64,000 nt of DNA from Parcubacteria group bacterium GW2011_GWA2_47_26 (GTDB lineage: Bacteria; Patescibacteriota; Patescibacteriia; GWA2-47-26): NCBI GenBank assembly GCA_001001705.1, contig LCOG01000002.1:20056-84055 (forward strand). Reading direction: 5' to 3'. Each line of letters begins with the position of its first letter. Within the stretch, counting starts at the first letter, position 1. Position numbers and translations under genes: made by a program. Of the stretch, positions 1,930-58,942 are shown piece after piece. The notes below the pieces were generated by a model that was not told where the DNA came from, did no database searches, and worked only from the letters and a program-made list of their open reading frames with translations.

Positions 1930-3126
1930 ATGCCGCTTTTTCGTTATCGCGCGAAAGATGCTCAAGGCAGGATGGTTGAAGGCCGCGTAGAGGCGTCGAC
2001 CCTCATTCTAGCCGAGGCTGCGCTTAAAGATCGCGGTTATGAGATTGTTTTACTTGGAGAGGTAAAACGCAAATTCAGTCTTCCGACTTGGGAGCGGGTT
2101 AAAACCCGCGACCTTGTTATTTTTGCGCGGCAGTTGTCCGTGCTCATTGGGGCTAATGTTCCAATCGTGCAGTCGTTGCGTACAGTTGTGCGTCAAACGC
2201 CCAGCCCAGTTTTAAATAAAATATTGCATCAAGTTGCTGATGAGGTTGAGGCAGGAGCGCGACTGTCGCTTGCCTTTGCTAAACACCCCAAGATTTTTGA
2301 TGAATTTTTTGTGAACATGATAAAAGCGGGCGAGACTGCCGGCCGTTTGAACGAAGTTCTGGGTTATCTTGCTGATCAAAAAGAAAAAGACTACGATCTC
2401 AATTCAAAAATTCGCGGGGCCATGATGTATCCTGCCTTCATAATATTCGGCATGATTGTGGTCGGGATTATCCTGCTGGTTTATATTATTCCGCAATTGA
2501 CCTCCACGCTTCAGGAAGCTGGAGTGGAGCTTCCTTTGACTACGCGGCTTTTAATTGGGGCTTCCAGGGCCGTGAAAGAATACGGCTGGTTAATGCTTAT
2601 TGGTCTTATAGCTCTAGTCGCTGGTCTTCGTTACGGTTTGCGCAATCCTGAATTCCGCGCGGGCTGGGATAAAAATAAACTGCGCTTGCCCGTTGTCGGT
2701 GCGCTGTTTCAGCGCATTTATTTAGCGCGTTTTTCACGCAGTTTGAATACTCTGCTTGCCGGCGGTGTTGACATTGTTGCCAGTTTGAAAGGCGTGGGCA
2801 AGGTTATTGGCAATGCGCACTATGAACGGCTCGTGCGACAAACTGTGCGCGAGGTAGAAGACGGCAATTCAATCATTACCGTATTTAAAGACGATCCTTT
2901 AGTGCCCGCCATGATCTCGCAAATGCTTTCGGTTGGCGAGGAAACTGGCCAGCTTTCCGGAATTTTGGAAAAGCTCACGAATTTTTATACGCGCGAAGTT
3001 GATAATGCCGTTACTGATCTAGTGTCCGTTATTGAACCACTGCTTATGATTGCAATTGGCGTGGGGGTCGGCATGATTGTGGCTTCAATAATTTTGCCCA
3101 TGTACCGTTTGTCCGGACAGTTTTAG
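1930..3126 (+). CDS. pilC: Type IV pilus inner-membrane platform protein PilC (GspF family)
   Basis: GspF-family duplicated domain architecture with TM segments; position after pilB. Confidence 0.9.
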   Translation: MPLFRYRAKDAQGRMVEGRVEASTLILAEAALKDRGYEIVLLGEVKRKFSLPTWERVKTRDLVIFARQLSVLIGANVPIVQSLRTVVRQTPSPVLNKILHQVADEVEAGARLSLAFAKHPKIFDEFFVNMIKAGETAGRLNEVLGYLADQKEKDYDLNSKIRGAMMYPAFIIFGMIVVGIILLVYIIPQLTSTLQEAGVELPLTTRLLIGASRAVKEYGWLMLIGLIALVAGLRYGLRNPEFRAGWDKNKLRLPVVGALFQRIYLARFSRSLNTLLAGGVDIVASLKGVGKVIGNAHYERLVRQTVREVEDGNSIITVFKDDPLVPAMISQMLSVGEETGQLSGILEKLTNFYTREVDNAVTDLVSVIEPLLMIAIGVGVGMIVASIILPMYRLSGQF

Positions 3127-3170: not shown

Positions 3171-3258
3171 TCACATCACAAAGGGTCTATCGTAAGTCCA
3201 CTAGATTATGTTATACTAAATATATTCAAGCTATGTGGATAACTGACACCGAAGGTGT

Positions 3259-3335
3259 CAGCCTGACCCCGCCAAAGCGGGGGAAGGATCCCCAGCATAC
3301 AAGAATGAGATTCTTCACTATGTTCAGAATGACAC
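3259..3335. repeat. Family A palindromic element (degenerate copy) upstream of pilin gene
   Basis: GTCAGCCTGA...GGAAGGATCCCC...GATTCTTCACTATGTTCAGAATGACA. Confidence 0.5.
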
Positions 3336-3942: not shown

Positions 3943-4476
3943 ATGAAGAAACAAACATACAAGAAAGGGTTTACTTTGATCGAGCTATTGGTGGTAATTG
4001 CCATTATCGGAATCTTATCAACCTTAGCCGTTATCTCACTGGGTAACGCCAGAACAAAAGCACGTGATTCCAAGAGACTTTCGGATATGCGCAGTGTAGA
4101 GAGTGCTTTGGAAATTTATTACACGGATCAGCAGGCGTATCCAGTAGCCGCCACTACCAATCCATGTCTTATAGCCACGAGCATTGAGAATTGTTGTTTG
4201 AATAATATTTCCGGGGCAGAAGGTGGTTGGAAAACCGCCGGCAACTGCACAGGGGGTTCTACCCTGATAACAGTTCCGAACGATCCTAGAAACACAGGGA
4301 CATGGGATAACTACGTTTATTTGCGACCAGATGCCAATACTTATTCTGTTGAATTTGCTCTAGAAGCGGATCCTGATAGCACTGGTCCACTTGTGATTAC
4401 GTCATCTACCACAACGACAAACTGTCTCTCATCAGGAGGTATGACTGCAAATACAGGCGCGGCAGGATGTCCGTAG
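3943..4476 (+). CDS. Type IV pilin (major pilin candidate)
   Basis: MKKQTYKKG|FTLIELLVVIAIIGILSTLAV classic prepilin N-terminus with Glu at +5; strong GGGTGAG RBS upstream. Confidence 0.85.
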   Translation: MKKQTYKKGFTLIELLVVIAIIGILSTLAVISLGNARTKARDSKRLSDMRSVESALEIYYTDQQAYPVAATTNPCLIATSIENCCLNNISGAEGGWKTAGNCTGGSTLITVPNDPRNTGTWDNYVYLRPDANTYSVEFALEADPDSTGPLVITSSTTTTNCLSSGGMTANTGAAGCP

Positions 4477-4568
4477 TCAGAGTCATAAGATGTATATGTG
4501 AAAGTAAAGGATCGCCCATACACAGGGGCGGTCCTTTTGTGGTACACTACAGATGTAGAACAACTGTT

Positions 4569-5504
4569 ATGAATATAATTTTTGTCATAATACTTGGCCT
4601 TGTCGTGGGCAGTTTTTTGAATGCCTATATTTTTCGTTTGCATAGAAGTACAACTCTTAACCCTTCCCTGCATAACCCCCTCCAACTCCCCCTTATCTTA
4701 AGGGGGAGAGATCGATCACCCCCCCCTCTTAGGATAAGAGGGGGTGAGGGGGAGTTACGAAGTGTCTGGCGCGGCAGGTCATACTGTCCAAAATGTAAAA
4801 AACCCTTAGCCTGGTATGAACTGATTCCAGTTCTGTCGTTTATTTTACAGTTGCGCCGTTGTCGCGGCTGTAAGCAAAGGATTGATTGGCAGTACCCGGT
4901 GGTGGAGTTGAGTACGGCAGTTCTGTTTGTGCTGGCTTATCTAGCACAAAGAATTATGAATCAGGCCGTAATTCATGATTTCCTATTCCTGATTCAACAA
5001 CTGGTAGCCTGGTACTTGCTTTCCGTCCTTGTCATCCTTTTCGTTTTTGATCTCCGCTATGGCCTAGTGCCGGATAGAATGGTGTTGCCTGCGATTGTGA
5101 TAGCGTTTTTTAGCATGGTCATCCTAAATGCAGTGAAGGATCCCATGATTCCCGATATAGACGGGATTCTTCGCTTCGCTCAGAATGGCACAAACCTCTA
5201 CGTTCTCTTAGCCATCGCTGTCGGCGCCGGATTTTTTGCTTTACAATACTACGCTTCAAAAGGCCGCTGGCTTGGCGCTGGCGATATTCGTATTGGCGCT
5301 TTAATGGGAGCAATGTTGGGCTGGCCGCTGATTATTGAGGCACTGGTTCTATCCTACATGATCGGCGGAGTCGTTGGACTGCTATTGATTGCAACAGGTA
5401 AAAAGCGTTTTGGCCAAACTGTGCCTTTAGGAACATTTTTAACTCTGGGCACAGCAATAACTTTTTTATATGGCGAACAAATTTGGCATTGGTATTGGGG
5501 ATAA
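4569..5504 (+). CDS. pilD: Prepilin peptidase PilD (A24 family); carries an in-frame family E palindromic element
   Basis: CPKC...CRGC tetracysteine motif before multiple TM helices, A24 peptidase core; ORF track starts at 4467 but hydrophobic N-terminus MNIIFVIILGLVVGSF starts at ATG 4569. Confidence 0.8.
   Translation: MNIIFVIILGLVVGSFLNAYIFRLHRSTTLNPSLHNPLQLPLILRGRDRSPPPLRIRGGEGELRSVWRGRSYCPKCKKPLAWYELIPVLSFILQLRRCRGCKQRIDWQYPVVELSTAVLFVLAYLAQRIMNQAVIHDFLFLIQQLVAWYLLSVLVILFVFDLRYGLVPDRMVLPAIVIAFFSMVILNAVKDPMIPDIDGILRFAQNGTNLYVLLAIAVGAGFFALQYYASKGRWLGAGDIRIGALMGAMLGWPLIIEALVLSYMIGGVVGLLLIATGKKRFGQTVPLGTFLTLGTAITFLYGEQIWHWYWG
4671..4766. repeat. Family E element (two hairpin units) within pilD
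   Basis: CATAACCCCCTCCAACTCCCCCTTATCTTAAGGGGGAGAG...CCCCCCCTCTTAGGATAAGAGGGGGTGAGGGGGAGTTACGAAGTG. Confidence 0.8.
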
Positions 5505-8308: not shown

Positions 8309-10469
<2,161 letters not shown>

Positions 10470-13552: not shown

Positions 13553-13574
13553 TATTATAATTTCTCCGACAGAG

Positions 13575-13646
13575 CTCCGAGGTGGCGCAGCGGTAGCGCA
13601 GGGGACTGTTAATCCCTTGGTCGTGGGTTCGAATCCCACCCTCGGA
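13575..13646 (+). tRNA. tRNA-Asn (GTT)
   Basis: Cloverleaf: acceptor TCCGAGG/CCTCGGA, anticodon loop CTGTTAA, T-arm GTGGGTTCGAATCCCAC; no encoded CCA. Confidence 0.8.
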
Positions 13647-13662
13647 GCTCTGTCGGAATACT

Positions 13663-14217
13663 ATGACTATTACAATGCATCAGTTAGAAAGACTGTTTCT
13701 TTATGTTGGTTTATTTTTTTTAATTACGCCCACATACGCGCAATCTCCAACCGTCTCCATTATTTCTCCAGCTCCTGGCGAGGTTGTTTATGGCGATAGT
13801 ATCACGGCGAATGTAAGGATGCCGGATAATTTTATATTGGGGCAAGATGGTTATTTGTATTTTTGGCTTGATGCGCCGCTTGAGCGCGACAGCTCCAATG
13901 CCGTGATTGTTCCAGAGGCACAACATACTTTTGCGCAAGTTACTTCGGGCTTGCATACGCTTTGGGTTGAGCTTGTAAATCAAAACTATGCTTCTCTTTC
14001 TCCCAAAGTTGAAGCAATGGTGGAGTTTGAAACTGTGGTAGAGGGGCTTGCTGGTCCAGGCGGCGGTCCCGGGCCAGTCCCGCCCCAAACAAGTGGCGGT
14101 TTTTTATCAGTCTCTAGCAATACCGTGGCCGTAATTATTTTGATAGGGGTTGCGATTGTAGTTTTATGGTATTTGTTTGGGCGACATAAAAAGGTGTCGC
14201 CTACTAAGAAAACTTGA
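13663..14217 (+). CDS. Hypothetical cell-surface protein (signal peptide, Pro/Gly linker, C-terminal TM anchor with basic tail)
   Basis: N-terminal signal LFLYVGLFFLITPTYAQS; C-terminal GPGGGPGPVPPQTSGG + TM + GRHKK. Confidence 0.5.
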   Translation: MTITMHQLERLFLYVGLFFLITPTYAQSPTVSIISPAPGEVVYGDSITANVRMPDNFILGQDGYLYFWLDAPLERDSSNAVIVPEAQHTFAQVTSGLHTLWVELVNQNYASLSPKVEAMVEFETVVEGLAGPGGGPGPVPPQTSGGFLSVSSNTVAVIILIGVAIVVLWYLFGRHKKVSPTKKT

Positions 14218-16340
14218 GCGCAGAAGTATTGTGCATGGCAATTAATTATCAACGCGAACTAAACGCCGAGCAGTTGCGTGTAGTCAATGACGGAAACGGT
14301 CCTTGTTTAGTTTTAGCCGGAGCTGGAACAGGCAAGACGCGGACCATTGTGTACCGCGTTGCTTATTTATTGGAACAAGGCATTGATCCGGGCAAGATTT
14401 TGTTGGTTACTTTTACCAATAAAGCCAGCCGCGAGATGTTAAGAAGAGTGGAAATTTTGCTTGGCCACACGCCCGAAGGTCTTTGGGGCGGAACTTTTCA
14501 TCATGTGGGCCATGCAATTTTGCGCCGTTATGGATCGCGCATCGGACTCGCGTCCGGTTTTACTATTTTAGATCAGGATGACAGCATGGAATTGCTAAAA
14601 TCAACTATGGCAGAGCAGGGCCTGTCCACTAAAAAAGATGATAAATCTTTTCTAAAACCCGAAGTATTAGATAACTTAATTAGCTTTTCTGTAAATAGCG
14701 CGCGCGCATTGCCAGAGCTTGTTGAGGAATGGATACCTAAACATGCACATCTAACGCCGGAAATTTTACGCCTCGCAAGCGCCTACGAGCAAAAAAAGCG
14801 CGAACGTAATGTTGTAAGTTTTGATGATTTGCTTTATTTCTGGCTATGCCTTTTGCGTGAGAGGCCCGAGGTGCGCGAGAGTCTAGGCGGTAAGTTTGAT
14901 TATATATTGATTGATGAATATCAGGATACAAATCGTTTGCAAGGTATGATCGTTGAAGAACTTGCTCGTCAAAGTGAAGGCGGTGGGGCTTGTGGTAAAA
15001 ACGTTCTTGTGGTTGGCGATGATGCCCAATCAATCTACGCCTTCCGTGCCGCGACCGTTGAAAATATTATGCGTTTTCCCGAGGTATTTCCCGGCGCAAA
15101 AATTTTCCGTCTTGAACAGAATTATCGCTCTACGCAAGCAATTCTTGATCTGGCGAACGCATGCATCGCTTGCAATCGCCGGCAATTTGAAAAGGAACTT
15201 AAAAGTGCTTGTCATCCTGAGCGAAGCGAAGGATCCCGGCCTAATCGAGAATCACGGGATTCTTCGGCCTCTGGCCTCAGAATGACAGACTATGAGGGCA
15301 CTAGGCCGGAGCTTATTGGGTGCGCTGACGCTACCCAAGAGGCTAGATTTATTGCGGGCAAGGTTTTGGAGTTTCACGACGAAGGCGAATCTCTCCTTGC
15401 AAGCGCTGTACTCTTCCGTGCGGCCTATCAAGCCATGCAGCTTGAACTAGAACTTCAAAAGCGAGGGGTGCCCTATGTTGTTCGGGGCGGTATTCGTTTT
15501 TTTGAACAAGCGCATATCAAAGACGTGGTGGCGTATCTAAAAGTGGTAGCGAATCCAACTGACGAGATTGCTTGGCAGCGTGTGCTAAAAATGGAAGAGG
15601 GAATTGGTGCAAAAACTGCCGCGGTGCTTGCGCAACGCATGATTCATAACTCCCCCCAACCCTCTCTTACCTTAAGAGGTGGTGATATAGTGAATATTCC
15701 TACCCAAAGAGCGCGGGGAAGTGAGGAGGGGTTACAAAAAGTTCTTGCCCGTATTGAAAAATTAAAATCTTTAGATAAGGTCTATAGAATGATTGATTAT
15801 TTATTAGAAGCATTTTACGAAAATTATGCCGAAGCAGTTTTTGAAAACGCGCGAGAGCGGCTTGAAGATTTAAGACAACTCGCGCTTTTTGCCAAAGAGT
15901 ACCAAGAGCTAGAACAATTTTTAGCTGATGCAACCCTTTCAGAAGGCTTTCGCGGGGAAAGAAAAGGGAACGTTTCTAATTTTGTCGAGCAAAATTTAGA
16001 GACGCTCCCTTTTCTTAATGAAGATCAAGAGCATCTAGTGCTCTCTACGATTCATCAAGCTAAAGGCTTGGAGTGGAAAAATGTTTTTGTGGTGGGTCTG
16101 ATTGATGGTCAATTTCCGCATTACAAATCTCACGGTAGCCGCGCAGAGCTCGAAGAAGAACGGCGTCTTTTTTATGTGGCAGTGACGCGCGCCAAAGAGC
16201 AGCTCTTTCTAACCTATCCCGTAACCAGTATGGGCTCGCTTGGCACAGCCGTGCACCAGCCGTCTTTATTTGTCCGCGAACTCAACCCGCATTTGTTTAA
16301 GACCATGCTGGATGACGAAGAAGTCGTCGTTGAAATATAA
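14214..16340 (+). CDS. uvrD: ATP-dependent DNA helicase UvrD/PcrA family (in-frame family A, E and F elements)
   Basis: Walker A AGAGTGKT, helicase motifs through VTRAKEQLFL. Confidence 0.9.
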   Translation: MSAEVLCMAINYQRELNAEQLRVVNDGNGPCLVLAGAGTGKTRTIVYRVAYLLEQGIDPGKILLVTFTNKASREMLRRVEILLGHTPEGLWGGTFHHVGHAILRRYGSRIGLASGFTILDQDDSMELLKSTMAEQGLSTKKDDKSFLKPEVLDNLISFSVNSARALPELVEEWIPKHAHLTPEILRLASAYEQKKRERNVVSFDDLLYFWLCLLRERPEVRESLGGKFDYILIDEYQDTNRLQGMIVEELARQSEGGGACGKNVLVVGDDAQSIYAFRAATVENIMRFPEVFPGAKIFRLEQNYRSTQAILDLANACIACNRRQFEKELKSACHPERSEGSRPNRESRDSSASGLRMTDYEGTRPELIGCADATQEARFIAGKVLEFHDEGESLLASAVLFRAAYQAMQLELELQKRGVPYVVRGGIRFFEQAHIKDVVAYLKVVANPTDEIAWQRVLKMEEGIGAKTAAVLAQRMIHNSPQPSLTLRGGDIVNIPTQRARGSEEGLQKVLARIEKLKSLDKVYRMIDYLLEAFYENYAEAVFENARERLEDLRQLALFAKEYQELEQFLADATLSEGFRGERKGNVSNFVEQNLETLPFLNEDQEHLVLSTIHQAKGLEWKNVFVVGLIDGQFPHYKSHGSRAELEEERRLFYVAVTRAKEQLFLTYPVTSMGSLGTAVHQPSLFVRELNPHLFKTMLDDEEVVVEI
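15211..15287. repeat. Family A element within uvrD (encodes HPERSEGS...)
   Basis: GTCATCCTGAGCGAAGCGAAGGATCCC...GGGATTCTTCGGCCTCTGGCCTCAGAATGAC. Confidence 0.8.
15647..15692. repeat. Family E single unit within uvrD
   Basis: CATAACTCCCCCCAACCCTCTCTTACCTTAAGAGGTGGTGATATAGTG. Confidence 0.6.
15958..16016. repeat. Family F element within uvrD
   Basis: GGAAAGAAAAGGGAACGTTTCTAATTTTGTCGAGCAAAATTTAGAGACGCTCCCTTTTCT. Confidence 0.75.
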
Positions 16341-16794: not shown

Positions 16795-16803
16795 AGGTAT
16801 TCG

Positions 16804-16923
16804 TCCCGTTAGAAGCCGCGGTCGCGATACATTGGAGAGCTAAATATTATGCAAAAGGTCTATATTATAACAACAAACATTAACCAGCAGATCGGGAAGA
16901 CCGCGACCTGCTTCTAACGGGAT
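16804..16923. repeat. Family B element between the ArsR-family gene and nifS, ending on nifS ATG
   Basis: TCCCGTTAGAAGCCGCGGTCGCG ... GAAGACCGCGACCTGCTTCTAACGGGAT|G. Confidence 0.8.
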
Positions 16924-18331
16924 GAACGAGAAACGCACAGTATATCTTGATCATGCCGCGGCCACACCTCTTGATCCGCAAGTTAAAGAGGCTATGTTGC
17001 CATATCTGGGCGAACAATATGGCAACCCCTCGGCAATCTATGCGCCGGGGCGCATTGCTCGAGAAGCTTTGGATAATGCGCGCGAGACAGTAGCACAGGC
17101 TTTAAATTGCACCGCCGCCGAAATTATGTTTACCGGTAGCGGCACCGAGTCTGCTAATCTGGCCATTTTCGGCGTCGCACGAGGGTATCGTCGTGACCAA
17201 GTCACTGCCGCAGGCGCAACCCGTGACTTGGTCACAAAAGGCCACATCATCACCACCAACATTGAACATCATGCTGTTTTAAATTCCTGCAAAGCCCTTC
17301 AAAACGACGGTTTTGAAGTTACTTATTTGAAAGTAGATCATGACGGGCTTGTAACAGCCGAGCAATTTAAAGCCGCTATTCGGCCGGACACGATTTTAAT
17401 TTCCATCATGTACGCCAATAACGAGATTGGCACAATTGAGCCGATACATGAACTCACGCGCGCAATGCAAGAGCGCAAAAAAGAACTCGGACGCAAGCCA
17501 AATGACCCCCCATTTTTTCATACTGATGCCTGTCAGGCCGCGGGATATTTAGATATTGATGTGAAGAGCCTCGGGGTGGACCCCGTTAGAGGCAGGTCGC
17601 CCCAAGGTGACCGTAGCACTGCCTCTAGCGGGGTGGCCTCTAGCGGGGTGGATTTAATGACAATCAATGGAAGCAAGATTTATGGGCCCAAAGGCACTGG
17701 TGCTCTTTTTGTGCGCCGTGGCTTGAAACTGCAACCGCTAATTTATGGGGGCGGACAAGAAATGAAATTGCGCTCTGGAACAGAGAATGTGGCTGGTATT
17801 GTGGGGTTGGCCACGGCGCTTAAAATTGCGACGCAACTACGCGATAAAGAGGGGCAGCGCTTAATTGCACTGCGTGATCAACTGCTTACTGGCATTATGG
17901 ATCGCATTCCAAAGGTGGTATTAAATGGACACGCCACCAAACGTTTGCCGAACAATGTTGATGTGTCAATTTTAGACATTGAAGGCGAAGCCATGCTTTT
18001 GTATCTGGATGAGCATGGTATATATGTATCAACCGGCAGCGCTTGTGATTCCCAAGCTCTGGATCCCTCGCATGTGATTTTGGCTCTAGGCAAGCCCTAT
18101 GAATTCGCGCACGGCAGTATCCGGTTTACTTTGGGGCGCGCGACTAGCGCAGCAGATATTGATTATGTATTGGATGTCCTGTCGCAGATTGTAAGCACCC
18201 TGCGCAAAATATCGCCGGTGCGCATAGATGTGAATGCAACCGGTATAACTGCTAAGACCGCGTTTGTTGGGGACGGTCTGCCGCATTTCGTAAAACAGCA
18301 GAGTAATAGAGGAAAAAAGGACCGCCTCTAA
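16922..18331 (+). CDS. nifS: Cysteine desulfurase NifS/IscS (class V aminotransferase) with in-frame family D and C elements; stop codon lies inside a family F element
   Basis: PLP-binding region, TGSGTESANLAI, active-site Cys loop STGSACDS. Confidence 0.9.
   Translation: MNEKRTVYLDHAAATPLDPQVKEAMLPYLGEQYGNPSAIYAPGRIAREALDNARETVAQALNCTAAEIMFTGSGTESANLAIFGVARGYRRDQVTAAGATRDLVTKGHIITTNIEHHAVLNSCKALQNDGFEVTYLKVDHDGLVTAEQFKAAIRPDTILISIMYANNEIGTIEPIHELTRAMQERKKELGRKPNDPPFFHTDACQAAGYLDIDVKSLGVDPVRGRSPQGDRSTASSGVASSGVDLMTINGSKIYGPKGTGALFVRRGLKLQPLIYGGGQEMKLRSGTENVAGIVGLATALKIATQLRDKEGQRLIALRDQLLTGIMDRIPKVVLNGHATKRLPNNVDVSILDIEGEAMLLYLDEHGIYVSTGSACDSQALDPSHVILALGKPYEFAHGSIRFTLGRATSAADIDYVLDVLSQIVSTLRKISPVRIDVNATGITAKTAFVGDGLPHFVKQQSNRGKKDRL
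17192..17235. repeat. Family D element (GTGACCAAGTCAC doublet) within nifS
   Basis: GTGACCAAGTCACTGCCGCAGGCGCAACCCGTGACTTGGTCAC. Confidence 0.8.
17575..17657. repeat. Family C element within nifS (encodes VDPVRGRSPQGDRSTASSGVA)
   Basis: GTGGACCCCGTTAGAGGCAGGTCGCCCCAAGGTGACCGTAGCACTGCCTCTAGCGGGGTGGCC with duplicated terminal arm. Confidence 0.8.
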
Positions 18332-32408: not shown

Positions 32409-34697
32409 ATGATCCGCTATAACTTATCAAGTCCAGTAAGTGCACTATCGCATATTGGCCGCACCGTGGAGACTCAACTGCGACACCTAGGAGTTCTCAC
32501 CATACAGGATCTCCTTTTTTATTTTCCGGTTCGCTACGACGATTTGCGCAATATCACCGAGATTAAAGATTTAAAAATCGGCGAAAGGGCAGTAGTGCGT
32601 GGAAAAATTGAGCTTATTCAAAGCCGCCGCAGCAAATATAGAAAGAAACTCCTTACCGAGGCCATTGTCTCTGATGCGACGGGCAGTTTAAAAATACTTT
32701 GGTTTGGCCAGCCTTGGCTAATTAAAATGTTTAAAACCGGCGATGAGCTGTATTTGGTTGGCGAAGTTAAAGACGATGGCTCCGGCGCGTATATGTCCTC
32801 GCCAAGCTATGAGCGCGCAAGCGGGCACGCGACAATTCATACGGGCCGCATTGTGCCAGTTTACGCTTTGACCGAAAAGCTTTCTCAAAAACAAGTGCGT
32901 TTTTTAATGAGTCGCGCTTTTCCGCTCGCTTCGAGCATAGTTGATTGGCTGTCTCAAGATTTGAGGACAAGATACAAATTATTGGATTTAAAACGCGCTA
33001 TTTCTTTTGTGCATTTTCCGCCGGATAATCAAAAAATGGAAGCGGCCCGGCGGCGTTTGAAATTTGATGAATTGCTGCGCTTGCAGATTTTTGCCGCTAA
33101 AGTAAAACAGGAACTCAAAAAATTACCCGCCCCGAAAGCGGTATTTAATGAGAAGGCGACAAAGCAATTTGTACAAGGCTTGCCTTTTGAGTTAACCGAG
33201 GCGCAACGCAAAGCGGCCTGGGAAATTGTCAAAGATATTAGTCGGCCGCGCCCAATGAATCGTTTGCTGGAGGGCGATGTTGGATCGGGAAAGACTGTCG
33301 TGGTTGCGATTGCGGCATTGAATGCGGTTGGTGTTTGTGACCATGTCACCGCGGCTAGTGACCTGGTCACAAACAAAGGTCAGGTGGCCATTATGGCGCC
33401 GACCGAAATTTTGGCGCGTCAACATTTCAAAACATTTTCAAAATTACTTGGACCCCATGGTGTGCAAGTAGAGTTACGCACCAGCAGTGAAAAAGGTAAA
33501 AAGGGGATTATAGACAGCAATGTAGTTGTGGGAACACATGCTTTAATACAAGACAGTGTAAAGTTCAAAGATTTGGTGCTCGCGGTTGTTGATGAACAGC
33601 ACCGTTTTGGCGTGCGTCAACGGCAAGCGCTCAAGGATAAGCGCGAGGATGGAAAAATGCCCCATCTGCTTACTTTGACCGCCACGCCAATCCCGCGTAG
33701 TTTGGCTTTAGTATTTTATGGCGATCTTGATCTCTCCGTGCTTAATGAAATGCCCAAGGGGCGGCAGAGAATTGAAACCGTGTTGGTAAGTAACGCTTCC
33801 CAACCCCCTCCTCATAAACCCACCCACCCTCCCCTTAAGTTAAGGGGAGGAGGCGAAAAAGGGACCGCCTCTAATTTTGCAAAGCAAAACTTAGAAGTGG
33901 TCCCTTTTTCGCGGGAACAGGCCTATCAATTTATCCGTACTGAAGTTGCCGCCGGCCACCAAGTCTTTTGGACATGCCCGATTATTGATCCTTCCGACAC
34001 GCTTGGTGTAAGAGCCGCGACCGAAGTATTTGAGCATTTGCGCACCGAAATTTTTTCTGATCTGCGCATTGGACTCTTACACGGGCGCATGAAGTCAAAA
34101 GAAAGAGAAAAAGTGATGGAAGCGTTTGTAGGCCCATCTTGTCATCATGAGCGTAGCGAAGGATCTCGGGATTCTTCGCCTGCGGTTCAGAATGACAGAG
34201 GACACACGATTGATATTCTCGTAGCCACGCCGGTTATTGAAGTTGGTATTGATGTGCCTAATGCTACAGTCATGGTTATTGAAGGAGCACAGCGTTTTGG
34301 CTTAGCCCAGCTTCATCAATTTCGCGGACGCGTTGGCCGGGGCGAGGCGAAATCGTATTGTTTGTTGATGGTGGAAGAAAAAGGGACCGCCTCTAATTTT
34401 GCTGCGCAAAATTTAGAAGTGGTCCCTTTTTCTGCGCGTATCAAGGCATTTTTAGAGTGCGACAATGGTTTTGAACTCGCCGAGCGCGATTTGACGCTTC
34501 GCGGTCCTGGCGATACTTATGGCATTGCCCAATCCGGTTTTCCGGAATTCAAAATCGCGAGTTTCGCGGATGTTGAAATTGCCAAAGAGGCCAAAGAAGC
34601 GGCGGAGGTGATTTTAACGCGCGATCCGGAACTTACGAACTATTCCGAGCTCAAACAGGCGATACTTGATAAAGAAGGCCGGACGCATTTAGAATAA
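32409..34697 (+). CDS. recG: ATP-dependent DNA helicase RecG carrying five in-frame palindromic elements
   Basis: Wedge domain, Walker A GDVGSGKT, DEQH box, helicase C motifs QFRGRVGR. Confidence 0.9.
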   Translation: MIRYNLSSPVSALSHIGRTVETQLRHLGVLTIQDLLFYFPVRYDDLRNITEIKDLKIGERAVVRGKIELIQSRRSKYRKKLLTEAIVSDATGSLKILWFGQPWLIKMFKTGDELYLVGEVKDDGSGAYMSSPSYERASGHATIHTGRIVPVYALTEKLSQKQVRFLMSRAFPLASSIVDWLSQDLRTRYKLLDLKRAISFVHFPPDNQKMEAARRRLKFDELLRLQIFAAKVKQELKKLPAPKAVFNEKATKQFVQGLPFELTEAQRKAAWEIVKDISRPRPMNRLLEGDVGSGKTVVVAIAALNAVGVCDHVTAASDLVTNKGQVAIMAPTEILARQHFKTFSKLLGPHGVQVELRTSSEKGKKGIIDSNVVVGTHALIQDSVKFKDLVLAVVDEQHRFGVRQRQALKDKREDGKMPHLLTLTATPIPRSLALVFYGDLDLSVLNEMPKGRQRIETVLVSNASQPPPHKPTHPPLKLRGGGEKGTASNFAKQNLEVVPFSREQAYQFIRTEVAAGHQVFWTCPIIDPSDTLGVRAATEVFEHLRTEIFSDLRIGLLHGRMKSKEREKVMEAFVGPSCHHERSEGSRDSSPAVQNDRGHTIDILVATPVIEVGIDVPNATVMVIEGAQRFGLAQLHQFRGRVGRGEAKSYCLLMVEEKGTASNFAAQNLEVVPFSARIKAFLECDNGFELAERDLTLRGPGDTYGIAQSGFPEFKIASFADVEIAKEAKEAAEVILTRDPELTNYSELKQAILDKEGRTHLE
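33337..33370. repeat. Family D short element within recG
   Basis: GTGACCATGTCACCGCGGCTAGTGACCTGGTCAC. Confidence 0.65.
33793..33854. repeat. Family E unit within recG, directly abutting a family F element
   Basis: CCCAACCCCCTCCTCATAAACCCACCCACCCTCCCCTTAAGTTAAGGGGAGGAGGCG. Confidence 0.65.
33855..33910. repeat. Family F element within recG (copy 1)
   Basis: GAAAAAGGGACCGCCTCTAATTTTGCAAAGCAAAACTTAGAAGTGGTCCCTTTTTC. Confidence 0.8.
34141..34197. repeat. Family A element (short form) within recG
   Basis: GTCATCATGAGCGTAGCGAAGGATCTCGGGATTCTTCGCCTGCGGTTCAGAATGAC. Confidence 0.8.
34376..34432. repeat. Family F element within recG (copy 2)
   Basis: GAAAAAGGGACCGCCTCTAATTTTGCTGCGCAAAATTTAGAAGTGGTCCCTTTTTCT. 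Confidence 0.8.
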
Positions 34698-44218: not shown

Positions 44219-45544
44219 ATGATTACTCTATTTATCTTTCTCGCCGTTCTATCTGTCCTTGTTTTTGTCCACGAATTTGGACATTTTTTTGTGGCAAAAA
44301 AGGCCCGATTGCGTGTTGATGAGTTTGGCATAGGTTTTCCTCCGCGGCTTATTGGAATCCGTAAAAAAAATGTCATCCTGAGGGAGTCCCGCGCCTGCGG
44401 GACGACGAAGGATACCGCACATAAAAGAACGGGATTCTTCACTGCGTTCAGAATGACGAATTGGGAGGTTGTTTGGGGCCACCCCGTTAGAGGTAAGACG
44501 CCAGAGGCGTCTGCCGATGCCCTCGGGCATCGGACCTCTAACGGGGTTGACCCGCACGCGGGCGGAACGCTTTATTCTATCAACCTGTTTCCTTTCGGCG
44601 GTTTTGTGAGAATCAAGGGAGAGTCTGGAAATGAGCGACTGGATCAGGATAGTTTTGCCAGCCGCGGCGCCGGAGTCAGAATTATGATTGCCGCGGCCGG
44701 AGTATTGATGAACGCGCTTTTGGCAGTGGTGCTCATTGCCGCGGGTTATAGACTAGGCTTTCCCCAAGCTATCTCGGATCAACCGTCAAAGTACGCGCAA
44801 ATCTCTGATCAGCATATTGAAGTCATGGGAGTCTTGCCAGATAGTCCCGCGGCGCAATCCGGTCTTAATGTTGGCGATCGTATTTTGGCAGTCGGTGTAG
44901 CGTCAGAGACAGCCGCTTTGCGTGAGCTTCAGAACTCCGAGGACTTTCGCAATGTTACAAAGGAGTTAGTCGGAGAGTCGGTAACGCTTGTTGTTGAATC
45001 TGATAAAGTGCGGCGAGAAATTCAAGTGACCCCTAAAATTTTAGAGCAAACTGGCAAGGCCGGAATAGGCGTGGCTATCGTTGATGCCGCAATAGTCCGC
45101 TATCCTTTATGGGTGGCATTGCCCAAAGCTTTTGAAACCGTGGGGATTTTAGCGAAAACGATTGTCGTAGCTTTTGCCGATATTGTCCGCGATGCTCTGC
45201 TTGGTCGGCCAGTTACGGCTGAACTGGCTGGTCCGGTTGGTATTGCCGTACTCACTGGTCAGGCCGCACGCATGGGTTTTGTATTTTTATTGCAATTTAT
45301 TGCGATCCTGTCCATTAACTTGGCCATTCTTAATGTTCTGCCGATTCCCGCGCTGGATGGCGGCCGCATCCTGTTTATTCTGATTGAAAAGCTAAGGCGT
45401 CGTCCTGTCGCGGTAAAAGTGGAAATGATGATTCAGCAGATCAGTTTTGTTTTGCTTCTGCTCCTGATTATTTTTGTGACCTATCGCGATCTCGGCCGCT
45501 ACGGCGGACGAATTACTGAATTTTTTAAGAACATGGTACAATAG
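44219..45544 (+). CDS. rseP: RseP-like site-2 protease (M50) with PDZ domain; adjacent in-frame family A and family C elements inside the first loop
   Basis: HEFGHF zinc motif, PDZ GLNVGDRILAVG, LDGG motif. Confidence 0.9.
   Translation: MITLFIFLAVLSVLVFVHEFGHFFVAKKARLRVDEFGIGFPPRLIGIRKKNVILRESRACGTTKDTAHKRTGFFTAFRMTNWEVVWGHPVRGKTPEASADALGHRTSNGVDPHAGGTLYSINLFPFGGFVRIKGESGNERLDQDSFASRGAGVRIMIAAAGVLMNALLAVVLIAAGYRLGFPQAISDQPSKYAQISDQHIEVMGVLPDSPAAQSGLNVGDRILAVGVASETAALRELQNSEDFRNVTKELVGESVTLVVESDKVRREIQVTPKILEQTGKAGIGVAIVDAAIVRYPLWVALPKAFETVGILAKTIVVAFADIVRDALLGRPVTAELAGPVGIAVLTGQAARMGFVFLLQFIAILSINLAILNVLPIPALDGGRILFILIEKLRRRPVAVKVEMMIQQISFVLLLLLIIFVTYRDLGRYGGRITEFFKNMVQ
44372..44457. repeat. 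Family A element within rseP (GAGGAGTCCCGC subfamily)
   Basis: GTCATCCTGAGGGAGTCCCGCGCCTGCGGGACGACGAAGGAT...GGGATTCTTCACTGCGTTCAGAATGAC. Confidence 0.8.
44478..44550. repeat. Family C-like element within rseP, directly after the family A copy
   Basis: CCACCCCGTTAGAGGTAAGACGCCAGAGGCGTCTGCCGATGCCCTCGGGCATCGGACCTCTAACGGGGTTGACC. Confidence 0.7.
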
Positions 45545-45576: not shown

Positions 45577-45654
45577 TGTCATTCTGAGCGAAGCGAAGAA
45601 TCCCGTGGAAAATGAACGGGATCCTTCACTACGCTACGCTCCGTTCAGGATGAC
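45577..45654. repeat. Family A element, intergenic rseP-pheS
   Basis: GTCATTCTGAGCGAAGCGAAGAATCCCGTGG...GGGATCCTTCACTACGCTACGCTCCGTTCAGGATGAC. Confidence 0.8.
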
Positions 45655-46828: not shown

Positions 46829-46884
46829 TGTCATCCCCGACCGCGATCGGGGATCCGTGGATTTCCGCTTTCGCGGGAATGACA
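46829..46884. repeat. Family A-like short element, intergenic pheS-pheT
   Basis: GTCATCCCCGACCGCGATCGGGGATCCGTGGATTTCCGCTTTCGCGGGAATGAC. Confidence 0.6.
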
Positions 46885-46894
46885 ATAAAGAATT

Positions 46895-49609
46895 ATGAAC
46901 TTATCGGTTTCCTACAAATGGTTAAAAGAATATTTGCCCGGACTTAAGGCTGACCCGGAAGAGGTGGCGGCCAAATTGTCCCTGCATTCTTTTTCTGTTG
47001 AACGCTGGCAGAGAACGGGAGAAGGACTTAATGAGCGTATTGTGGTTGGAAAAATTAAAAAAATCGAACAACATCCCAATGCGGATAAGTTGAAAGTTGC
47101 GCATGTGCAAGTCAGTCCACAGTCGACAATCGACAGTTCACAGAAAATTGTTTGTGGCGGTACGAATATCCGCGAGGGACAGCTCGTGGCTTTGGCATTG
47201 TCGGGCGCAAAGGTGCGTTGGCACGGGGAAGGGGAGTTGATTGAACTCAAGCCCACAGAGATTCGCGGAGTCCGAAGCGAAGGCATGATTTGCGCGGCTA
47301 ATGAAATTGGTTTATTTGAAATGTTCCCGCATAAGGAGAGGGAAATTTTGGATTTAACCGCGACCGGTGCGCAAGTTGGCGTGCCGCTTGCCAAAGCGCT
47401 TGGGTTAGATGACACGATTTTTGAGGTTGAAGTAACTACCAATCGTCCTGATGCAATGGGGATAGTGGGCTTGGCAAGAGAGGTAGGGGCGATTTTTGGC
47501 GTGCCGTTGAAGTTGCCGCAGATTAAGCAGATTAAGCAGATTAAGCAGATTAAGCAGATTAAGCAGTTGGAGGTGCGCATAGAGACTTCCAAACTTTGCC
47601 CGCGCTATATCGCCGTCATGATGGAAGGCATTAAAGTAGCGCCTTCGCCTTGGTGGCTGCAGAGAAAATTAATTGCAAGCGGAATTAGGCCGATAAATAA
47701 TTTGGTGGATATTACAAACTATGTTCTTTTAGAATATGGCCAGCCGTGTCATGCGTTTGATGCGGGGAAATTGAGCGACGGAAGTGACCATGCCACTGCC
47801 GTAGGCGCAACACGTGGCCTGGTCACGGAGAGCTGTTCCATTGTAGTCCGCATGGCTAGGAAAGGAGAAAAGATTTTAGCATTGGATGGAAATACGTATG
47901 GTCTTGACGAAAATATTTTGGTGATTGCTGATGCAAAGCGACCAGTGGCGATTGCAGGAATTATGGGAGGAGAGGAAACAGGCGTACATGCAGATACAAC
48001 GCGCATTGTGTATGAGATTGCGAATTTTGATCCGATTACGGTGCGCAAGGGTGAGCATCAATTGGCGCTTACCAGTGATTCTTCCGCGCGGTTTAATAAA
48101 GGTTTGCCAGTGAAGTTATCAGAATATGCCGCGGCGAGGTTGATTGAACTAACCAAAGAGGTGGTGGGTGGTGAAGTCATGGGTGTGGTTGACAAGAAAT
48201 CTCTACGCCGTCATCCTGAATGCAGTGAAGGATCCCGTGGAAGTAAGAACGGGATTCCTCGCGGAGTGCAACCCCGCACCGAACTCCGTTCTGGTGCGTG
48301 GGCTCGGAATGACAAGCTAGTTGTAGCTGTGTCTCCGCAAGATGTGGCGCAAAACATCGGCATTGATATTCCAAGAGCGCAAATGAAAAAATATCTTACT
48401 GCTTTAGGATTTAAGGTTAGCGGTTCAGCTAAAAAATGGTCAGTTGCGTTTCCTTACTGGCGCACAGTTGAGGCTGATGGAGTGGCTGATATCTCTGAAG
48501 AAGTAGCGCGGATGTATGGGTATCATAATCTGCCAAGTGTTTTGCCAGCAGGCACTTTGCCAGACGAGGCGCCCAATCCGGATTTTGCCCATGAGCAAAC
48601 AGTCAAAGATATACTGCGCGGCGCAGGCTTTACCGAGTTATATACTTACTCATTTGTCTCATCTGACGATATAATCAAAGCTGGCCTTGACGCAGGTGAG
48701 GACGCCGCAGCAATTGCTAATCCGCTCACTTCGGAGCTTACGCACATGCGGCCATGGCTTGGCATTTCTATATTGCGCGCGATTGAGAAAAATCAGACGA
48801 TGGCTGATGTGCTTAAGTTTTTTGAATTATCAAATGAATACCATCCCCGTCATAGCGGTCATTCCGAGCCCGCGCACCAGAGCGAAGCTCGGTGCGGGGT
48901 TTTACTCCGCGAGGAATCCCGTGCTTTACAGAACGGGATCCTTCGTCGCATTGCTCCTCAGGATGACACTGCGTGTCAACTGCCTGAAGAACGTCAAAAA
49001 CTTATCGTGGCGGGAGCGGGCAAGGAAGAACACGACGGAGAAAATTTTTATATTATAAAAGGTTTAGCCGAATATTTGGCCGTAACTCTAGGCTTGCCAA
49101 AATTGAGCTTTGTGCCAGCCCCAAAAAGCTCCGCGCTGTATAAATGGTTCCATCCGGCGCGGGTTATATGGTGTAAAGCAGGCGAAGATTTTCTGGGCCC
49201 GTTGGGCGAGGCGCACCCGACACTGCTTAAGGCCTTTGGCATCACGCGCCGTGTGGCTTTTCTAGACTGGGAAATTAAAGCGCTTTTTCCCTTGATTGGC
49301 AAAGGGCGTGTCTATAAATCTCCTCTAGCATATCCGCCAGTCAAACGCGATGTTGCGTTTATTGTGTCTAAATCTGTACAATATGCAAGTATCTTGGAGA
49401 CTATAGTAAAGCTTGATCCACTGATTTATGAAGTTGAGCTTTTTGACCAATACGAAGGCAAAGGCGTACCTGCGGATTCCAGAAGTTTAGCTTTTCACAT
49501 AACCTATGCCAGTTATGAACGCACCCTGACTGCGGAAGAAGCAGAACGTGTGCATGACAAGCTCACGAAAATTTTAAAGGAAAAATTTGACGCAAAAGTG
49601 CGCGAGTAA
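46895..49609 (+). CDS. pheT: Phenylalanyl-tRNA synthetase beta subunit (tandem QIK repeat, family D and two family A elements in frame)
   Basis: N-terminal tRNA-binding OB fold, B3/B4, FDX-ACB C-terminal domain. Confidence 0.9.
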   Translation: MNLSVSYKWLKEYLPGLKADPEEVAAKLSLHSFSVERWQRTGEGLNERIVVGKIKKIEQHPNADKLKVAHVQVSPQSTIDSSQKIVCGGTNIREGQLVALALSGAKVRWHGEGELIELKPTEIRGVRSEGMICAANEIGLFEMFPHKEREILDLTATGAQVGVPLAKALGLDDTIFEVEVTTNRPDAMGIVGLAREVGAIFGVPLKLPQIKQIKQIKQIKQIKQLEVRIETSKLCPRYIAVMMEGIKVAPSPWWLQRKLIASGIRPINNLVDITNYVLLEYGQPCHAFDAGKLSDGSDHATAVGATRGLVTESCSIVVRMARKGEKILALDGNTYGLDENILVIADAKRPVAIAGIMGGEETGVHADTTRIVYEIANFDPITVRKGEHQLALTSDSSARFNKGLPVKLSEYAAARLIELTKEVVGGEVMGVVDKKSLRRHPECSEGSRGSKNGIPRGVQPRTELRSGAWARNDKLVVAVSPQDVAQNIGIDIPRAQMKKYLTALGFKVSGSAKKWSVAFPYWRTVEADGVADISEEVARMYGYHNLPSVLPAGTLPDEAPNPDFAHEQTVKDILRGAGFTELYTYSFVSSDDIIKAGLDAGEDAAAIANPLTSELTHMRPWLGISILRAIEKNQTMADVLKFFELSNEYHPRHSGHSEPAHQSEARCGVLLREESRALQNGILRRIAPQDDTACQLPEERQKLIVAGAGKEEHDGENFYIIKGLAEYLAVTLGLPKLSFVPAPKSSALYKWFHPARVIWCKAGEDFLGPLGEAHPTLLKAFGITRRVAFLDWEIKALFPLIGKGRVYKSPLAYPPVKRDVAFIVSKSVQYASILETIVKLDPLIYEVELFDQYEGKGVPADSRSLAFHITYASYERTLTAEEAERVHDKLTKILKEKFDAKVRE
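47518..47566 (+). repeat. Tandem 9-nt repeat (CAGATTAAG x5) inside pheT encoding QIKQIKQIKQIKQIK
   Basis: Direct reading of sequence; motif shared with family H hairpins. Confidence 0.85.
47784..47826. repeat. Family D element within pheT
   Basis: GTGACCATGCCACTGCCGTAGGCGCAACACGTGGCCTGGTCAC. Confidence 0.75.
48210..48313. repeat. Family A element within pheT (copy 1)
   Basis: GTCATCCTGAATGCAGTGAAGGATCCCGTGG...GGGATTCCTCGCGGAG...CGGAATGAC. Confidence 0.75.
48859..48968. repeat. Family A element within pheT (copy 2)
   Basis: GTCATTCCGAGCCCGCGCACCAGAGCGAAGCTCGG...GGGATCCTTCGTCGCATTGCTCCTCAGGATGAC. Confidence 0.7.
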
Positions 49610-55323: not shown

Positions 55324-55407
55324 TTAGAGGTGGTAAAATTACACAAAAGCAGTCCCGCAACCGCGGGACTGCTTTTGTGTTGGAAGAATAAGGGACCGTT
55401 GCCGAAT

Positions 55408-55480
55408 GTCATCCTGAGCGCAGCGAAGGATCCCGAGCATCTAAAAAATAACGGGATTCTTCACTTCATTCAGAATGACA
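55408..55480. repeat. Family A element, intergenic
   Basis: GTCATCCTGAGCGCAGCGAAGGATCCCGAG...GGGATTCTTCACTTCATTCAGAATGAC. Confidence 0.8.
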
Positions 55481-55595
55481 ATGGAAAAAATTATATTCGG
55501 CAACAGTCCCATTAAGACAAGACGAAGCAAGCTCTAAAACTCTCGTTCCGAAATTGACACGATCGTGTCAATTTCGGGATAGCCTGCGGGACCGA

Positions 55596-55660
55596 AAAAG
55601 AGAACACTTCTAAATTTTGCAAAGCAAAATTAGAGGCGTTCTCTTTTTCGGCGTTCTCTT
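55596..55660. repeat. Family F element with right-arm duplication, intergenic
   Basis: GAAAAAGAGAACACTTCTAAATTTTGCAAAGCAAAATTAGAGGCGTTCTCTTTTTCGGCGTTCTCTTTTTCC. Confidence 0.7.
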
Positions 55661-57967: not shown

Positions 57968-58075
57968 CCCGTTAGAAGTTTAAGAATAATTTTCTTTTAA
58001 GTACCCGCTAGACGTCAGTCGGCTTCGCCTACTGTTTTTCGTATACGAATGTCGTGCTTAAACTTCTAACGGGAT
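57966..58075. repeat. Family B-like divergent element abutting the start codon of the minus-strand 766-aa gene
   Basis: CAT|CCCGTTAGAAGTT ... CTTAAACTTCTAACGGGAT; reverse complement reads CTTCTAACGGGATGAAC exactly as at nifS. Confidence 0.6.
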
Positions 58076-58781: not shown

Positions 58782-58933
58782 GTCATTCTGAGGAGTCCCG
58801 CAGGCGCGGGACGACGAAGAATTTCGCACGAATCCCGTTAGAGATCGCGGACGCAGTCCGCGTCCTATCTCTAAACGGGACGAATGTGCGGAATCTCGCA
58901 TACGCGAGAGATCCTTCACTGCGTTCAGGATGA
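58782..58933. repeat. Composite element: family A termini enclosing a CCGTTAGAG...CTCTAAACGG hairpin (family C-like)
   Basis: GTCATTCTGAGGAGTCCCGCAGGCGCGGGACGACGAAGAAT...CCCGTTAGAGATCGCGGACGCAGTCCGCGTCCTATCTCTAAACGGGACG...GATCCTTCACTGCGTTCAGGATGAC. Confidence 0.7.
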
Positions 58934-58942
58934 CTACTAATT

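Follow-up and report, generated by a model that had tools for sequence, protein, structure and literature searches.

Dimers of tagged hairpins in frame within essential genes of a Parcubacteria genome, a probable gene-less form of the Ssn/SRM-type unit of arms and GIY-YIG nuclease

The window analysed here, that is, the whole 64-kb stretch of DNA, lies on an 84-kb metagenomic scaffold of the Rifle aquifer (ANAN16-1 scaffold_613) and belongs to an uncultured groundwater bacterium, whose proteins are deposited under Parcubacteria group bacterium GW2011_GWA2_47_26, a candidate-phyla-radiation (CPR) organism. It has a GC content of ~47%, with nearly all genes on the + strand, and carries a dispersed palindromic repeat, named family A below, one copy of which (15211-15286) lies in the open reading frame (ORF) of a UvrD/PcrA helicase (14214-16340); together with its flanking T and A, this copy occupies 78 nt in frame (15210..15287, + strand). 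A first-pass annotation had regarded the repeat as a miniature transposable element with inverted repeats (MITE), non-autonomous and mobilised in trans, with 11 copies, 5 of them in ORFs, and with conserved terminal inverted repeats (TIRs) around a centre of 0 to ~90 nt. The family is real, as the 25-nt arm GTCATCCTGAGCGAAGCGAAGGATC has seven matches in the window at up to 3 mismatches and none in 100 dinucleotide-preserving shuffles. A search with both conserved half-sites and a variable spacer returned 26 matches, comprising 22 genuine arms in 11 inverted doublets and ~4 chance-like matches, the latter in agreement with the mean of 4.9 in Markov-simulated control sequence. The earlier list of copies is mostly right, except that it omitted the doublet of the prepilin peptidase gene and included, at 46829, a member of a sister family.

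Family-A doublets measure 56-153 nt, are palindromic and end in (T)GTCATYCTGAG...CTCAGRATGAC(A). Seven of the 11 copies are intragenic and in frame, in six ORFs (pilD, ligA, uvrD, recG, rseP and, with two copies, pheT), instead of the five first counted, and all the ORFs hosting copies are intact and complete in their Pfam domain architecture. Besides the one in uvrD, those on the + strand are a 72-nt doublet in the pilD-like prepilin peptidase gene (5118..5189, in ORF 4467-5504), which encodes VILNAVKDPMIPDIDGILRFAQNG; a 78-nt doublet in the NAD-dependent DNA ligase gene ligA (8847..8924, in ORF 8337-10469), encoding 26 residues; a minimal doublet of 56 nt, with a centre of ~4 nt, in recG (34141..34196, in ORF 32409-34697), encoding CHHERSEGSRDSSPAVQND; and an 86-nt doublet in the gene of an RseP-like M50 protease (44372..44457, in ORF 44219-45544), whose left arm has an expanded hairpin tip (GTCCCGC GCCT GCGGGAC). 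The gene pheT (ORF 46895-49609) carries a 104-nt doublet with a long right arm of 61 nt in the linker between its B3_4 and B5 domains (48210..48313, + strand) and, in the opposite orientation, a 110-nt doublet of the same long-arm subfamily (48858..48967, - strand).

Regarding the intergenic copies, three of the four begin 16-85 nt 3' of stop codons. A 77-nt doublet with its ATTCT arm first lies 34 nt past the stop of the rseP-like gene (45578..45654, - strand), and a 72-nt doublet (55408..55479, + strand), enclosed by another inverted repeat (55392-55412 / 55490-55510), lies between the convergent ORFs 54232-55323 (+) and 55667-57967 (-). A composite doublet of 153 nt (58782..58934, - strand), 16 nt past the stop of ORF 58131-58766, has in its centre a nested palindrome of another family (CCCGTTAGAG...CTCTAAACGGG). 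The remaining doublet, with degenerate arms (GTCAGCCTGACC...GAAGGATC / GATTCTTC...TCAGAATGAC; 3257..3333, + strand), follows the stop of ORF 1930-3126 at a distance of 131 nt. It falls within the 5' extension of a pilin ORF, upstream of that ORF's N-methylation motif, and is therefore probably intergenic. The sister-family doublet (TGTCATCCCCGACCGCGATCGGGGATCC ... CCGCTTTCGCGGGAATGACA; 46829..46884, strand undefined), between the pheS-like ORF 45688-46821 and pheT, has only the TGTCAT...ATGACA ends of family A, and its stems ATCCCCGA / ATTCCCGCG resemble those of Neisseria dRS3/NTS, being CGTC-1/NTS-like.

Each TIR is a self-folding hairpin, GTC + ATYCT-GA-GC(GAA)GC-GA-AGRAT + C, composed of an unpaired tag (Y)T-GTC, the stem ATYCT, a tandem G.A/A.G mismatch, a GC-closed tip and a C right after the stem. 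The nine stacked positions of the stem (ATYCT-GA-GC / GC-GA-AGRAT) comprise seven Watson-Crick pairs, five of them covarying, and two G.A mismatches. The set scored for covariation comprised 131 distinct arms of 25 nt, taken from the window and from 190 fetched loci; GTCAT was the anchor of the search, so that the GTC before the stem and the AT stem start were preset by it. In this set, 98.5% of the cells are paired and five of the seven stem pairs change on both sides, with pair types U-A/C-G/G-C at one pair and G-C/A-U at another. In four measures (paired cells, cells with both sides changed, additional pair types and covariation score) none of 500 shuffles equalled the arms; in a fifth, the number of pairs changed on both sides, two did, and the pairing falls to 16-54% when the stem partners are slid. 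The C after the stem, on which the search imposed nothing, is invariant (131/131 arms) and opens a tail C-Y-C, in which the second base is C or T in 129/131 and the third is C in 116/131. Preceding GTC, 123/131 arms have T or C (101 and 22 arms, respectively), and the doublet ends have T in 87/114 and C in 20/114; the palindrome reaches one base further out, with T before the element in 87/114 and A after it in 88/114 copies. The basic arm loop has 3 nt (GAA, GCA), and many tips are expanded by up to ~40 nt, giving arms of up to 61 nt. The variable centre of the first description is retained, ranging from ~4 to ~86 nt, but the arms vary as well, from 25 to 61 nt, through the hairpin tip.

Whole dimers fold as long branched hairpins, with z-scores of -2.2 to -5.8. 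All 11 copies in the window are head-to-head dimers with outward tags, and each is a heterodimer, joining an ATCCT/AGGAT arm to an ATTCT/AGAAT arm; outside the window, there are 38 heterodimers and 28 homodimers. This suggests that the dimer itself is the unit copied in this genome, which fits descent from a dimeric master copy. Arms are also found singly at many loci, with no bias of orientation relative to the inferred coding strand (50 vs 47). As a separate observation, among the 15 sources (14 loci and the window) with at least three single arms, 10 have all of them pointing the same way (e.g., 5/5, 5/5 and 4/4), the loci concerned being L003, L011, L018, L026, L028, L041, L059 and L064 (viral contigs), L074 and L076; this may reflect a replication-strand or insertion-strand bias.

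At the insertion boundaries, no target-site duplication (TSD) was found at any choice of boundary in a set of 115 non-redundant doublets, of which 105 lack any direct repeat at their flanks; moving the boundaries by -6 to +4 brought no improvement. The uvrD site is empty in a relative of the window organism (locus L191, UvrD identity 67%): after removal of T+76+A (78 nt), the window gene reads ELKSADYEGTRPEL, and the L191 orthologue reads ELHAVRGKGSKPEL, with identical length. When empty sites are considered as hairpin loops, the effect is weak (8.9 vs 7.6 junction-crossing pairs, p ~0.01) and is not relied on here.

The insert of uvrD corresponds to 26 extra residues (334-359), HPERSEGSRPNRESRDSSASGLRMT plus altered junction codons, which are missing from 20/20 aligned homologues (best identity 69%) and present in two near-identical cluster members. 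Another UvrD orthologue, P0003, has the same repeat at a different site (HPERSEGS...SSLRSASFRMT). Similarly, both PheT inserts are missing from 14/15 aligned homologues, the near-identical P0141 carrying both, and the B3_4-B5 linker holds a single arm (EILRSAQND) in P0142 and a different repeat in P0143; a lone arm and a member of another repeat family have struck this linker independently of each other. Family-A peptides occur in 2/120 UvrD homologues and 2/120 PheT homologues. The polymorphism expected of a mobile repeat is therefore seen among orthologues, which are without the insert or have the repeat at other sites in UvrD and PheT, but strain-level presence/absence was not found, as the cluster members at ≥90% identity all carry the inserts.

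Host proteins seem to accommodate the repeat in loops. In either orientation, two of the three arm frames are stop-free and the third has a TGA, and the intragenic copies use the open frames only; consequently, the surviving copies would be translated as disordered loops of 19-37 residues in LigA, UvrD, RecG, PheT, RseP and PilD. The LigA and UvrD inserts map to short loops of solved homologues, and the segment with the ligA copy exceeds the matching E. coli LigA loop (2OWO) by ~44 residues. An AlphaFold2 model of UvrD, confident overall (mean predicted local distance difference test score, pLDDT, 78.8; predicted template modelling score, pTM, 0.72), predicts disorder for the insert loop, with residues 334-360 below 50. 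Residues 480-499 and 575-603 also have pLDDT <50, the former coinciding with an extra segment (SPQPSLTLRGG...) found in only some homologues.

These strongly structured elements inside essential genes could also be imagined as intervening sequences, intron-like, bypassed by the ribosome or intein-like, which would be removed before or during translation, leaving proteins without inserts. This is most improbable, since a removed sequence would be under no constraint of frame, yet 7/7 intragenic copies are stop-free in the host frame, restore it downstream and never use the TGA frame. In addition, no Rfam intron or ribozyme family is matched, and the inserts are far too short for an intein.

A gene found between family-A arms in other genomes gives the repeat a partner. 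Among the loci selected by their arms, four small ORFs of the GIY-YIG type (PF01541, E 1e-16 to 1e-18) were each located between family-A arms. A further set of 80 metagenome loci was picked by alignment of the arm-bracketed GIY-YIG proteins, arms ignored. Of these, 48 have the gene bracketed by outward-tagged arms, each no more than 200 nt away, and 75 have such an arm on at least one side, compared with a chance expectation of ~0.5 from the arm density of the far flanks. The few apparent negatives have variant arms, some with compensated stems (ATTGC/GCAAT and others). The associated proteins have 93-109 residues in a single domain, PF01541 only, and the arm-gene-arm units measure 357-489 bp, with the ends (Y)TGTCAT...ATGACA(R), which match those of the window doublets. 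The protein family is very large, with >8000 members, 7999/8000 scored candidates having E <= 1e-5. The arrangement is present in the cultured Thermodesulfovibrio yellowstonii, whose gene is bracketed by arms, with 18 arms within 3.3 kb, and likewise in a Patescibacteria contig. Separately, L191 has an uncalled ORF (1609-1857) for a UPF0213-like small GIY-YIG protein (CVYVIRS...YIGSAES...RREKFLKSGQGRK), with tRNA genes on one side and a methyltransferase gene on the other, and with no family-A arms flanking it. This ORF stands at one edge of an inserted restriction-modification block, which the window lacks.

This partner bears directly on the first reading of the repeat. A classical MITE would be a deletion derivative of an insertion sequence (IS), with 25-nt TIRs recognised by a DDE transposase that pastes it into double-stranded DNA, and the inverted ends, the variable centre, the many dispersed copies and the lack of a transposase in the window agree with this. 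However, IS-derived MITEs have TSDs and a transposase-encoding IS with the same TIRs, neither of which was found for family A, while its ends occur singly and self-fold with covariation. Clustering of the ORFs around 375 arms (~1.5 Mb) gave no recurrent transposase-like ORF, only phage structural and common housekeeping families; the ORFs between distant arm pairs are ordinary genes, and the gene found bracketed by arms encodes a 95-residue GIY-YIG nuclease. A classical MITE is thus very improbable. What holds from the first-pass annotation is that the copies are non-autonomous and that other genomes have a unit with these ends that carries a gene; what does not hold is the IS origin, as TSDs are lacking, the ends are self-folding and of the repetitive extragenic palindromic (REP) type, and the gene is that of a GIY-YIG nuclease rather than of any known IS transposase.

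One of the closest known systems is that of the Ssn nucleases. As described by Chenal et al. 2025 (Nat Commun 16:2388, PMC11893778), SsnA is a 94-residue single-domain GIY-YIG nuclease that binds and cuts the Neisseria repeat NTS, which contains dRS3, as single-stranded DNA (ssDNA) only, its gene being flanked by repeats in an IS-like arrangement. Binding depends above all on the C after the palindrome, and cleavage above all on the 3 nt upstream of the stem (PMC11893778). Ssn homologues number thousands, mostly flanked by hairpin repeats, 81% of the genomes with >200 Ssn-related motifs (SRMs) encode the nuclease, and Rickettsia is among the SRM-rich genera (PMC11893778). Family A has the same oriented hairpin, unpaired (C/T)GTC tag, AT stem start and conserved C right after the stem, the same position on both sides of a gene for a single-domain GIY-YIG protein of ~94 residues (in other genomes, at the 48 loci above), and similarly hundreds of dispersed copies with a wide phylogenetic spread. 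It differs in the conserved tandem G.A mismatch of its stem, in a tip that is either a 3-nt loop or an expanded hairpin, in a host that is a CPR bacterium and not a proteobacterial symbiont, and in having 64% of the window copies intragenic, compared to 2% for NTS in N. meningitidis (PMC11893778). Family A is very probably a dimer of Ssn/SRM-type tagged hairpins and its gene-less derivative.

The hairpins also have the grammar of the CGTC-tagged REP superfamily, which includes Neisseria dRS3/NTS and Rickettsia RPE-4/-6 and which, as set out by Di Nocera, De Gregorio & Rocco in 2013 (BMC Genomics 14:522, PMC3733652), is the nearest published description. These repeats have an unpaired CGTC/TGTC/CCTC tag, a stem of 8-9 bp starting with A-T and T-A, a loop of 4-5 nt and a 3-nt tail (consensus CCA), and occur predominantly as head-to-head dimers, often heterodimers (PMC3733652). 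Their intragenic copies are concentrated in genes of DNA replication and repair and of tRNA synthetases, uvrD, ligase and tRNA synthetases being named (PMC3733652). Family A conforms in its tag, its stem of nine stacked positions, its C-rich tail and its head-to-head dimers, as well as in its intragenic copies in uvrD, ligase and tRNA synthetase genes. In contrast, its peptides (VILSEAKD / HPERSEGS / ILRFAQND) are not listed for CGTC-1, -3 or -4 (Additional file 3, PMC3733652), and its loop has 3 nt or long expansions rather than 4-5 nt. No associated gene and no tyrosine transposase flanked by the repeats were found for the CGTC superfamily (PMC3733652), whereas family A has the GIY-YIG gene.

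The in-frame habit resembles that of the Rickettsia palindromic elements (RPE), reportedly described by Ogata et al. in 2000. Both are palindromic repeats in frame in many unrelated essential genes of a small-genome bacterium, adding short peptide loops without disrupting the protein, and family A shares with RPE the in-frame insertion in functional genes, missing from orthologues. RPE-1, at ~100-150 bp, lacks the construction from two tagged hairpins. RPE-4 is CGTC-4 (VIPWLDHGI) and RPE-6 is CGTC-1 (VIPAKAGI) (PMC3733652); the peptides and stems of family A are unlike these, with the superfamily grammar alone in common, the host phylum differs, and the cited literature names no partner gene for RPEs.

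The doublets could instead be REP dimers (REPINs) moved by a REP-associated tyrosine transposase (RAYT) of the HUH type, from the IS200/IS605 family. Like a REPIN, family A is a non-autonomous dimer of inverted hairpins, thought to be replicated in trans by a protein with the same repeats flanking its gene, with an unpaired 5' tag and no TSD. A CT is frequent just upstream of the tag, and together these resemble the REP/BIME substrates of TnpA-REP reportedly described by Ton-Hoang et al. in 2012. However, the tag is GTC and not GTAG, the partner is a GIY-YIG nuclease and not a HUH tyrosine transposase, and 48/80 GIY-YIG genes are those that the arms bracket, no tyrosine transposase being flanked by CGTC repeats (PMC3733652). 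REPINs are extragenic, vertically inherited and lineage-specific (Bertels & Rainey 2011, PMC3116915), unlike family A, which is found in more than 20 phyla, among the matches listed, and in viral contigs. Moreover, a hidden Markov model from published RAYT and TIRYT sequences matches a single ORF in the 190 loci (in L107), which has its own unrelated hairpins around the gene. A REPIN/RAYT pair is accordingly a quite improbable explanation. The L107 gene (3727-4345) encodes a TIRYT-like Y1 transposase of Acidobacteriales and lies inside two nested hairpin repeats (GGCACGG..CCGTGCC and GGGGCTAAAGCCCC), which is a separate pairing of hairpin and transposase, unrelated to family A.

The phyla with family-A arms, among the matches listed from the genome collection, comprise Acidobacteriota, Patescibacteria, Chloroflexota, Verrucomicrobiota, Bacillota and Bacteroidota, several proteobacterial classes, Omnitrophota, Elusimicrobiota, Armatimonadota and others. 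The arm pattern is also present in 69 viral contigs, some single arms being in frame in phage proteins. In L011, a large ORF of a viral contig (2128-4323) has at least three in-frame single arms (ILRSAQDD, ILRSAQDD and ISRSARDD), by which the repeat is seen to colonise phage genes too. With the consensus dimer as BLAST query, so short that sensitivity is poor, one match was obtained among the PLSDB plasmids (a Calothrix plasmid) and none, with the same poor sensitivity, among GenBank phages. Rfam gave no matching family at gathering or permissive thresholds, only chance matches to miRNA-like hairpins, and a literature search with sequence or peptide strings returned primers and chance matches only. 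By eye, the sequences fit neither the hammerhead ribozyme core (CUGANGA...GAAA) nor an integron attC site.

A host function is a serious partial rival. The arms would then be the sites of a domesticated ssDNA nuclease controlling the integration of incoming ssDNA, or else mRNA or terminator hairpins, spread mainly by recombination or gene conversion, the intragenic copies being by-products. The window encodes type IV pilus genes, which are commonly linked to DNA uptake. In Neisseria, SsnA/NTS modulates the integration of transforming DNA and limits transformation (PMC11893778), and the conservation of the arm sequence across the phyla mentioned above, as well as the REP-typical position of three of the four intergenic copies downstream of stop codons, would also agree with a function. 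On the other hand, a terminator or cleavage site has no obvious benefit inside essential genes, where 7/11 copies lie; the new sites in orthologues still need an insertion mechanism; the compact arm-gene-arm units with conserved ends resemble a mobile unit; and the arms are present in viral contigs. As a full account, a host function is considered unlikely.

On balance, it is probable that the window doublets are the gene-less, non-autonomous form of the Ssn/SRM-type unit of arm, GIY-YIG gene and arm, mobilised in trans by the nuclease and surviving in frame in tolerant loops. That the nuclease mobilises the arms is, taken by itself, plausible and evenly balanced, being suggested by the IS-like architecture, the reported specificity of SsnA for ssDNA hairpins and the lack of target duplication. 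The arms would fold when the DNA becomes single-stranded; a nuclease supplied in trans would recognise hairpin and tag and nick alongside; and the segment, excised or copied, would go back into DNA with no target duplication. The insertions to survive in this Parcubacteria genome would be only those that kept the frame in tolerant surface loops. Presumably, the nuclease cuts family-A arms and the inserted peptides are present in the host proteins.

Several points weigh against this interpretation. No GIY-YIG gene of the arm-associated family was found in the 72 kb of the genome covered (the 64-kb window and 8 kb upstream), so a trans-acting nuclease in GW2011_GWA2_47_26 is only assumed. The published SRM pattern, HGTCWYN(0-2)YYVSBRHN(0-5)WNVSBRGN(0-2)RNCYNB, matches 0/131 family-A arms, and its only match in the window is an arm of the sister family (46829-46858). 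The nearest solved chain of the arm-associated protein is UPF0213 BH0048 (1ZG2, E 1.8e-5), from a clade that neighbours the Ssn clade cd10448, and SsnA itself was never shown to transpose anything (PMC11893778). The TIR-to-TIR lengths of the intragenic copies (72, 78, 76, 56, 86, 104 and 110 nt) are not all multiples of three whichever single boundary rule is used, and insertion may have been imprecise or adjusted afterwards. Finally, the window copies differ considerably in loops and tips and the near-identical strains share all inserts, so no current movement is visible.

Other repeats occur in the same genes. A second palindromic family (GAAAAAGGGACCGCCTCTAATTTT / AAAYTTAGAAGTGGTCCCTTTTTC, 8-nt centre) has copies at 15959-16016 (uvrD), 33853-33912 and 34365-34444 (recG) and 55592-55651 (intergenic), being also in frame in uvrD and recG; the uvrD copy is a segment missing from homologues and corresponds to residues 575-603 of the AlphaFold model (pLDDT <50). 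A third family (CCCGTTAGAGG...CCTCTAACGGGG) is found at 44475-44553 (rseP-like ORF), 16800-16926, 17580-17634 (aminotransferase ORF), 57966-58075 and inside the family-A doublet 58782-58934, whose nested copy indicates that the repeat families insert into one another. A C-rich/G-rich palindrome (CCCCTCCCAACCTCCCCTTAACCTAAGGGGAG...), to which the permissive Rfam scan gives hairpin scores for both strands, lies at 46511-46603 (inside ORF 45688-46821) and at uvrD residues ~479-505. Among related Parcubacteria, the UvrD and PheT orthologues contain kindred peptides (PPQPSLTLRGG, PLPRGEGEGG and PPLTVRGGEG) at sites that vary, by which in-frame repeat insertion looks general in this clade. In pheT, a short tandem peptide repeat, QIKQIKQIK... 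(window ~47560-47640, residues ~225-245), does not have the same length in the window as in the 99%-identical P0141 (904 vs 898 residues), a strain-level repeat polymorphism. Apart from these, a perfect 18-nt inverted repeat (13565-13582 / 13640-13657) overlaps both ends of a tRNA gene (13576-13647), lengthening the acceptor stem well past the mature tRNA.

Family A brings together three subjects treated apart in the cited papers, namely the CGTC REP hairpins, the Ssn ssDNA nucleases and the RPE-like in-frame colonisation of essential genes, in the setting of a CPR genome, a kind usually called streamlined. It stands out in being undetected by the SRM pattern, in its unusually broad phylogenetic spread and in being unusually often intragenic in a CPR genome; as the SRM pattern misses it, surveys based on that pattern undercount such systems. 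In metagenome-assembled genomes, such repeats inflate and distort protein predictions with spurious peptides (VILSEAKD, HPERSEGS, ILRFAQND) and low-confidence model loops. Moreover, the pairs of arm and nuclease may bring new specificities to the proposed ssDNA toolbox. It is a tentative and rather doubtful idea that the unit of arm, GIY-YIG gene and arm (~370 bp) is an autonomous transposable element, which would be the smallest known in bacteria, with a 95-residue ssDNA nuclease as its sole 'transposase', hairpin-guided and duplication-free, unlike any described IS family, and that its gene-less dimers would actively remodel the surface loops of essential CPR proteins. If it is true that the nuclease mobilises the arms, a new transposition mechanism would be defined.

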